Assembly: GCF_003018255.1 (NCBI RefSeq)
Contig: NZ_CP027440.1
Direction: 5' to 3' (one strand)
Length of the DNA: 64,000 bases
Origin: Escherichia coli
Lineage (GTDB): Bacteria > Pseudomonadota > Gammaproteobacteria > Enterobacterales > Enterobacteriaceae
In this document: piece by piece, positions 14,331 through 14,693 of the stretch
Layout of the letters: each line of letters begins with the position of its first letter
How positions within the stretch are numbered: position 1 is the first letter of the stretch
Translations under genes and position numbers: made by a program
The notes under the pieces: generated by a model
The model's database searches: none
The model's input: only the letters and a program-made list of their open reading frames with translations
What the model was told of the DNA's origin: nothing

Positions 14331-14693
14331 ATGAAGAAATATATTTTAGTATCTCTGATGGGATTAAGTTTGAACGCATTTGCGGGTGGCAGCGGCTGGA
14401 ACCCAGACAGGGTAGACCCGAGCCGTTGTGTTATGGCGACGGGGTCAGGTCCTACCTCTGCGGGTTATATGGTATACCGAACGACTGACTCAGTGTGTAT
14501 GCAGGGTATAAATGAAGGAAAAGTGAAAGGTGTCCATATTTATGATGGGCATCATGAGTTCAATGATGGTACTGTTGACACGTTTAGCGGTAATGTTACC
14601 CCAATATCACCTTTGACATTAAAAACTGATGTTCAAAAAGTTAATAAAGTTGGCATCAAACGCTGGTGGTATAAAGCTAGCTGGATTAAATAA
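14331..14693 (+). CDS. Small secreted protein, Aap (dispersin)/CexE family candidate; predicted substrate of the downstream Aat-like system
   Basis: 120 aa; Sec signal peptide MKKYILVSLMGLSLNAFA with AXA cleavage site gives mature N-terminus GGSGWNPD; two Cys (33, 56); AGAGG-like RBS upstream; AT-rich; immediately upstream of the transporter operon. Confidence 0.65.
   Translation: MKKYILVSLMGLSLNAFAGGSGWNPDRVDPSRCVMATGSGPTSAGYMVYRTTDSVCMQGINEGKVKGVHIYDGHHEFNDGTVDTFSGNVTPISPLTLKTDVQKVNKVGIKRWWYKASWIK

Follow-up and report, generated by a model that had tools for sequence, protein, structure and literature searches.

A chromosomal Escherichia coli gene cluster encoding an Aap/CexE-family protein, predicted to be glycine-acylated, and homologs of AatPABCD

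The window analysed here, a 64,000-nucleotide stretch of an Escherichia coli contig (NZ_CP027440.1), contains a short gene for an Aap/CexE-family (dispersin-like) pre-protein, followed on the same strand by five open reading frames (ORFs) that are full-length, same-order homologs of aatP, aatA, aatB, aatC and aatD (Table 1). We refer to the short gene as the substrate gene, and the reference proteins for the Aat comparisons are the products of the named dispersin-export genes of the pAA plasmid of EAEC O104:H4. Between the substrate gene and aatP there is a stem-loop with a T-run behind it, and degraded transposase genes lie at both edges of the insert that carries the cluster.

Table 1. Features of the substrate-aatPABCD locus, in window coordinates
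Feature	Position	Strand	Basis or detail
Degraded IS4/IS5-family transposase remnant, left insert edge	13326..13780	-	RefSeq annotation of identical DETEC-S792 locus
Shine-Dalgarno AAGAGG	14320..14325	+	5 nt before substrate ATG, read from sequence
Aap/CexE-family (dispersin-like) pre-protein gene	14331..14693	+	120 aa, ATG start, TAA stop included
Signal peptide coding part	14331-14384	+	within substrate gene
Gly19 codon, predicted acylation residue	14385-14387	+	within substrate gene
13-bp stem-loop then T-run	14730..14767	+	terminator scan; RNA fold -17.8 kcal/mol, z = -4.7
aatP homolog, FtsX/LolC-like ABC permease, 375 aa	14775..15902	+	47.4% to EAEC AatP over 369 aa, E = 1.7e-120
aatA homolog, TolC-like outer-membrane channel, 404 aa	15899..17113	+	34.9% to EAEC AatA over 390 aa, E = 1.1e-74
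aatB homolog, periplasmic adaptor	17037..17849	+	48.3% to EAEC AatB, E = 4.6e-84; weak RND_mfp match
aatC homolog, LolD-like ABC ATPase, 209 aa	17846..18475	+	61.5% to EAEC AatC, E = 2.3e-90
aatD homolog, Lnt-like N-acyltransferase, 406 aa	18484..19704	+	38.4% to EAEC AatD over 401 aa, E = 7.6e-88
Degraded IS630-family transposase, frameshifted, internal stop, right insert edge	~19829..20842	-	

The substrate pre-protein begins with MKKYILVSLMGLSLNAFA, continues with GGSGWNPD, and has a signal peptide made up of a basic n-region (MKK), a hydrophobic core, alanine at positions -3 and -1 and glycine at +1. A preliminary description of the locus had proposed a 120-residue product with a Sec signal peptide and an AXA site, and both the reading frame and the site, here AFA, were confirmed. 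It had also placed the mature N-terminus at GGSGWNPD and suggested SignalP as a check, and a published SignalP 5 run on the exact sequence, WP_001561605.1, puts the cleavage at 18-19 (AFA-GG, Pr 0.907), leaving Gly at +1, with scores of 0.975 for Sec/SPI and ~0.0003-0.02 for Sec/SPII (lipoprotein) (PMC7943197 supplement). The predicted mature protein has 102 residues (11.2 kDa, pI 8.98) and two cysteines, C33 and C56, in line with the approximately 100 residues and two cysteines first described. Equally, the claim that there is no lipobox cysteine is borne out by a pattern search for [LVI][ASTVI][GAS]C over residues 1-35, which gave no match; the first cysteine, C33, lies 15 residues past the cleavage site. 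The gene has a dN/dS of 0.12 when compared with its 76%-identical plasmid homolog, and because of this value and its strong homologs it is not a chance ORF.

On sequence grounds the product is truly related to dispersin (Aap) and CexE and belongs to the Aap clade. A phmmer search of the PDB returned a single match, dispersin 2JVU, across the whole mature chain (E = 3.3e-23), and mature dispersin in that entry opens with the same six residues, GGSGWN. Alignment to Aap and CexE, proposed earlier as a check of family resemblance, gave pre-protein identities of 46.7% to Aap of EAEC 042 and 28.7% to CexE of ETEC H10407 (the latter with E = 2.6e-7), and an alignment of 24 family sequences shows no variation at G19 (mature residue 1), C56 or W118, and almost none at W23, P30 and C33. 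The suggestion that this might be a divergent member of the family thus stands as regards membership, the divergence being only moderate and within the Aap clade. The published family rule is an invariant Gly at mature position 1 with the first five mature residues Gly/Ser-rich (PMC7943197), and the mature start GGSGW has both features.

An AlphaFold2 model built on the same 24-sequence alignment has a mean pLDDT of 84 and a pTM of 0.70, with the signal peptide disordered. A Foldseek search of the PDB with this model recovered 2JVU (E = 2.4e-9, TM 0.63/0.74) and 9HHO (E = 1.3e-4), which by sequence is mature CexE, every further match having E > 1; a profile of the family alignment searched against the PDB likewise matched these two entries only. 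The substrate is accordingly predicted, from the model, to share the conserved beta-sandwich fold of 2JVU and 9HHO. Scans of the substrate against NCBIfam and Pfam-A gave no match, NCBIfam and the Pfam-A copy used being without a model for the family. All homolog clusters of the substrate in a large protein database (P0001-P0006) bear the precomputed Pfam tag PF28204.1, which points to a recent Pfam model for the family that is absent from the copy used.

The Aat genes downstream are the strongest evidence for the Aat/CexE reading, and they were not cited in the preliminary description, which had started from the signal peptide and the mature N-terminus. The substrate gene lies 82 bp upstream of aatP, and an arrangement with the substrate no more than 400 bp upstream of aatPABCD is found in 18.4% of published Aat systems. 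In addition to the alignments in Table 1, the 404-residue AatA ORF has an N-terminal signal sequence and a weak TolC family match, AatC has family matches of the LolD, FtsE and MacB type, and AatD matches the Lnt model TIGR00546 (E = 3.5e-9) and CN_hydrolase (E = 0.0016). The start of aatB is uncertain, with an ORF that opens at a GTG at 17001 and an alignment to EAEC AatB that begins at Met13 (17037). Compared with the 76-86%-identical plasmid lineage described below, all six genes give dN/dS values of 0.08-0.15, and have thus been kept by purifying selection. As a separate candidate, an anti-phage defence system was rejected, since the only PADLOC signal among the six proteins is a generic ABC-ATPase likeness of AatC.

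Conservation of the acyltransferase active site could be followed residue by residue. In ETEC AatD, the residues E217, K278, E286 and C325 are each needed for CexE acylation, as established by mutagenesis, and are 100% conserved in known AatD proteins. Direct phmmer comparison of the window AatD with the PDB matched no Lnt structure because the protein is too diverged from Lnt, and the catalytic residues were instead mapped through an alignment to AatD homologs. This alignment, which included AatD of EAEC, of ETEC B7A and of the plasmid lineage, places them at E210, K271, E279 and C319; all four are kept and are invariant across it.

The stem-loop in front of aatP has a counterpart in the plasmid lineage, where a stem occurs at the same position (pDLI.5a, locus L005 5211-5248) with z = -5.4, and a compensatory A:U to G:C change distinguishes the chromosomal and plasmid stems. 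The T-run that follows is strong only in the chromosomal copy and weaker in the plasmid lineage, so that a simple terminator scan missed the plasmid hairpin, the conservation of the stem being revealed by folding and alignment. We regard the hairpin as a candidate partial terminator or mRNA-stabilising element, which would probably let substrate mRNA exceed transporter mRNA.

Comparison with characterised systems places the locus nearest to dispersin. Aap of EAEC 042, encoded on plasmid pAA2, shares with the substrate both cysteines, the predicted beta-sandwich, a pI of 8.98 and the site NAFA/GG, and is exported by a homologous AatPABCD system, as is predicted for the substrate. The two differ in that aap is carried on a pAA plasmid apart from aatPABCD and near aggR, whereas the window gene is chromosomal and directly precedes its aat genes. 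Relative to Aap, the substrate also has an extra 6-residue insertion (the SGPTSA loop) and a His-rich DGHHEF patch, both common to a small sub-clade, and the window Aat proteins are only 35-62% identical to those of EAEC.

CexE of ETEC H10407 is the protein in which acylation of Gly by AatD was demonstrated. It resembles the substrate in mature length (101 residues in CexE, 102 here), in having Gly at +1, a G/S-rich N-terminus, two cysteines and a basic pI, and in predicted fold, but it is only 28.7% identical and belongs to the CexE clade, the substrate falling with Aap. CexE is plasmid-borne and regulated by CfaD/Rns, for which PMC7943197 cites Pilonieta et al. 2007.

A closer relative, from the same small sub-clade, is the plasmid lineage represented by WP_000760019.1, examples of which are pDLI.5a (NZ_CP103973.1), pLAO40 (NZ_OP242267.1) and the STEC299 and O170:H18 plasmids. 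It has the same substrate-aatPABCD order, the hairpin, the insertion loop and the HHEF motif, with identities that run from 76% (substrate) to 86% (AatC). Unlike the chromosomal copy, it is found on IncF plasmids beside EAEC-type genes (a shf-like deacetylase gene, capU, virK and astA), and its unrelated upstream region has a perfect AggR/Rns-type tract, ATTTTTTTATC, 120 bp before the substrate ATG (L005 4698-4708 in pDLI.5a and L003 11870-11880 in pLAO40). A good -10 element (TATTAT) lies 28 bp downstream of this tract, outside the published 21-23 bp rule.

Considered as a whole, Aat is a composite of Lnt-, LolCDE- and MacAB-TolC-type parts, and the housekeeping counterparts can be recognised in the window proteins: AatD keeps the E-K-C triad of Lnt and its stabilising Glu, AatC resembles LolD, AatP resembles FtsX/LolC, AatA resembles TolC and AatB is a membrane-fusion adaptor. 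Two features set Aat apart, namely that the acceptor is the N-terminal glycine of a signal peptidase I-processed protein and not the diacylglyceryl-cysteine used by Lnt, and that the product reaches the cell surface through a TolC-like channel and not by way of LolA/LolB.

The cluster forms an AT-rich, IS-flanked islet of ~7.7 kb in the E. coli chromosome, with hokE on one side and entD on the other. The backbone (hokE region) ends at ~13310 and entD begins at 21131, and the GC content of the cluster is 27-35%, compared with ~50% for the chromosome. When window positions 12819-14330 were used as a query, 5,410 of 5,426 genomes matched only query positions 1-491. The islet occurs in three of the 5,426 complete E. 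coli genomes (JNE23-011, JNE112863 and DETEC-S792, hosts of unrelated source), in each case on the chromosome and at 99.8% identity or higher, and the ~79%-identical plasmid lineage occurs in five more. A literature search on the three strain names returned nothing. The locus in DETEC-S792 is identical, its RefSeq coordinates being offset by 5330 from those of the window.

The surroundings of the islet show some further irregularities. The hokE toxin region downstream of ybdK (12819-13310) is kept as backbone up to the insertion point, and RefSeq places a frameshifted 'hypothetical protein' within it, at window ~13023-13291. Beyond the islet, an IS3-family element lies between entD and fepA (coordinates 21905-23262 and 23363-25663), and fepA itself is an uninterrupted 766-codon ORF in the window and is annotated as frameshifted in DETEC-S792.

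Aat systems are typically activated by regulators of the AraC/XylS type, such as AggR, CfaD/Rns and RegA. The insert holds neither an AraC/XylS-type activator gene nor an ANR-like small ORF. The published AggR-promoter rule is a WWWWWWWTATC tract with a -10 element 21-23 bp downstream, and a scan with it found no such promoter upstream of the substrate gene or of aatP, the scan being weak in AT-rich DNA. The same scan recovers the characterised aap promoter of 042 with the published 22-bp spacing and 134-bp distance, and bare WWWWWWWTATC matches are no more frequent than expected by chance. The cluster could be poorly expressed or silent under laboratory conditions, because the AT-rich insert has no activator gene and no AggR-type promoter was found.

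An AraC-type protein is present elsewhere in two of the three islet hosts, JNE23-011 and JNE112863, which carry a plasmid-borne CofS with 23% identity to AggR; cofS was found in 23 genomes, and DETEC-S792 is not one of them. A strict link between cofS and the islet was rejected, as cofS is present in two of three islet genomes but at least 13 genomes with full-length cofS lack the islet.

In both strains, which are human isolates from Japan, the cofS plasmid is 98 kb in size and holds the whole of a CFA/III-like type IVb pilus operon (cofR, cofS, cofT, cofB-cofI and others), together with an LpxR-family lipid A deacylase and an M91 zinc metallopeptidase that we read as NleD-like (locus L008, NZ_AP045068.1, 4735-17515 and 42103-47468). 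Close cofS plasmids are also found in other JNE human isolates and in isolates from milk, cattle, pig and dog.

Taken together, these observations make it very probable that the substrate is an Aap-clade glycine-acylated surface lipoprotein whose gene opens a self-contained substrate-aatPABCD cluster. This is the best explanation of the homology, the signal peptide and Gly at +1, the fold predicted from the model, the order of the genes, the intact catalytic residues and the purifying selection documented above, and from it we infer acylation, export, surface location and biological role. For the likely mechanism we take the model put forward by Icke et al. 2021 (PMC7943197), which has experimental support for CexE and Aap, the two proteins for which N-acylation of Gly has been shown. 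Applied to this locus, the pre-protein would be exported by Sec and cut by signal peptidase I after AFA18, exposing Gly19, to whose alpha-amino group AatD, by analogy, would move an acyl (palmitoyl) chain from a phospholipid. The LolCDE/MacB-like pair of AatP and AatC may then pull the acylated protein out of the inner membrane, and the adaptor AatB and TolC-like channel AatA would carry it on to the cell surface. There the basic (pI ~9) beta-sandwich could remain held in the outer leaflet, forming a coat like that of dispersin. Members of the family differ in enzyme-substrate specificity, as is indicated by the failure of Citrobacter rodentium AatD to complement an EAEC aatD mutant.

Other accounts of the same genes have to be set against this one. 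A canonical lipoprotein, triacylated by Lgt, Lsp and Lnt, would draw on nothing beyond the signal peptide and the two cysteines, and with no lipobox, a first cysteine well inside the mature chain and the very low published Sec/SPII score its probability is close to nil. The substrate might otherwise receive no lipid after signal peptidase I cleavage and be a soluble protein, periplasmic or secreted, with the ABC and TolC-like genes exporting a bacteriocin, a drug or some other cargo. The best NCBIfam match of the ATPase is indeed a putative bacteriocin-export ABC transporter, although below the cut-off, and RefSeq labels the neighbouring genes only generically; yet all five neighbours match AatP, AatA, AatB, AatC and AatD over their full length and in the same order, a plain efflux pump has no use for an Lnt-like acyltransferase whose catalytic tetrad is intact, and no bacteriocin gene is present. 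We consider this account very improbable.

Expression is a different matter, and here the alternative is that the cluster is a silent or orphaned relic, acquired without its AraC-type activator, with basal expression or none, so that the protein is neither made nor acylated. We judge this unlikely, while acknowledging that it would fit the missing activator gene and AggR-type promoter, the degraded IS elements at both insert edges, the place of DETEC-S792 outside the cofS-carrying set and a GC content of the kind typical of H-NS-silenced DNA, which would suggest silencing. Against a relic stand the six intact ORFs, full length when compared with the EAEC proteins, the 99.8% identity of the cluster in three genomes of unrelated source and the dN/dS values, which speak for long-term purifying selection, mostly in the history before insertion; moreover, activators of the Aap/CexE family work in trans, often from genes located elsewhere. 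A more elaborate proposal is that the chromosomal copy is a domesticated and regulator-rewired system that has lost the EAEC AggR-type promoter context, may have come under CofS control in trans in JNE23-011 and JNE112863, and uses the hairpin to set the substrate:transporter ratio. This is speculative and decidedly unlikely as a whole. If it were true, CofS control would bring together a pilus adhesin and an anti-aggregation coat of the dispersin type, in a lineage typical of neither EAEC nor ETEC.

Returning to the preferred reading, that of a glycine-acylated surface lipoprotein with its own Aat system, much of the material had been catalogued before. Icke et al. 2021 (eLife 10:e63762; PMC7943197) include the exact substrate, WP_001561605.1, among their Aap/CexE homologs, and their paper also lists the plasmid form, WP_000760019.1, and WP_000760021.1, a variant that differs at one residue (PMC7943197). 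WP_001561606.1 (AatP) is given in its aatP position table for E. coli KTE75, at a scaffold position of ~885 kb, and for other strains (PMC7943197); the accession series found at the locus, WP_001561605/606/607, thus appears in published tables for KTE75, whose AatD is one of the four representatives in the phylogeny of the same study (PMC7943197). Among the rows listed of the table of 826 complete systems (PMC7943197), WP_001561605.1 does not occur. Both the substrate and its system were therefore already catalogued in the 2021 paper that defined the class, and there is nothing conceptually new in them. Aat-exported glycine-acylated lipoproteins are a recently defined class of surface virulence or colonisation factors and candidate vaccine antigens. 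The locus is an example of an Aat system that is rare, lies on the chromosome and has no regulator close by, and it occurs in human isolates with a CFA/III-like pilus plasmid, which may interest those typing atypical diarrhoeagenic E. coli.

The practical value lies in annotation, that is, in a substrate left as 'hypothetical' by RefSeq, generic Aat labels and three apparent N-terminal truncations. At the identical locus in DETEC-S792, RefSeq calls the substrate a 'hypothetical protein', names the Aat genes generically and starts AatA, AatB and AatD further downstream, at lengths of 377, 254 and 367 residues. The ORFs that align over their full length are longer (404, ~270 and 406 residues, respectively), the longer AatA adding a signal sequence and the longer AatD an N-terminal hydrophobic stretch, and the RefSeq starts of all three are probably N-terminal truncations. 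A comparable case occurs in the plasmid lineage, where the region after aatC in pLAO40 (L003 16126-17357) is annotated as a 765-bp gene for a hypothetical protein, preceded by a 467-bp unannotated gap, and where in pDLI.5a the same hypothetical-protein annotation hides an intact 406-codon aatD ORF.
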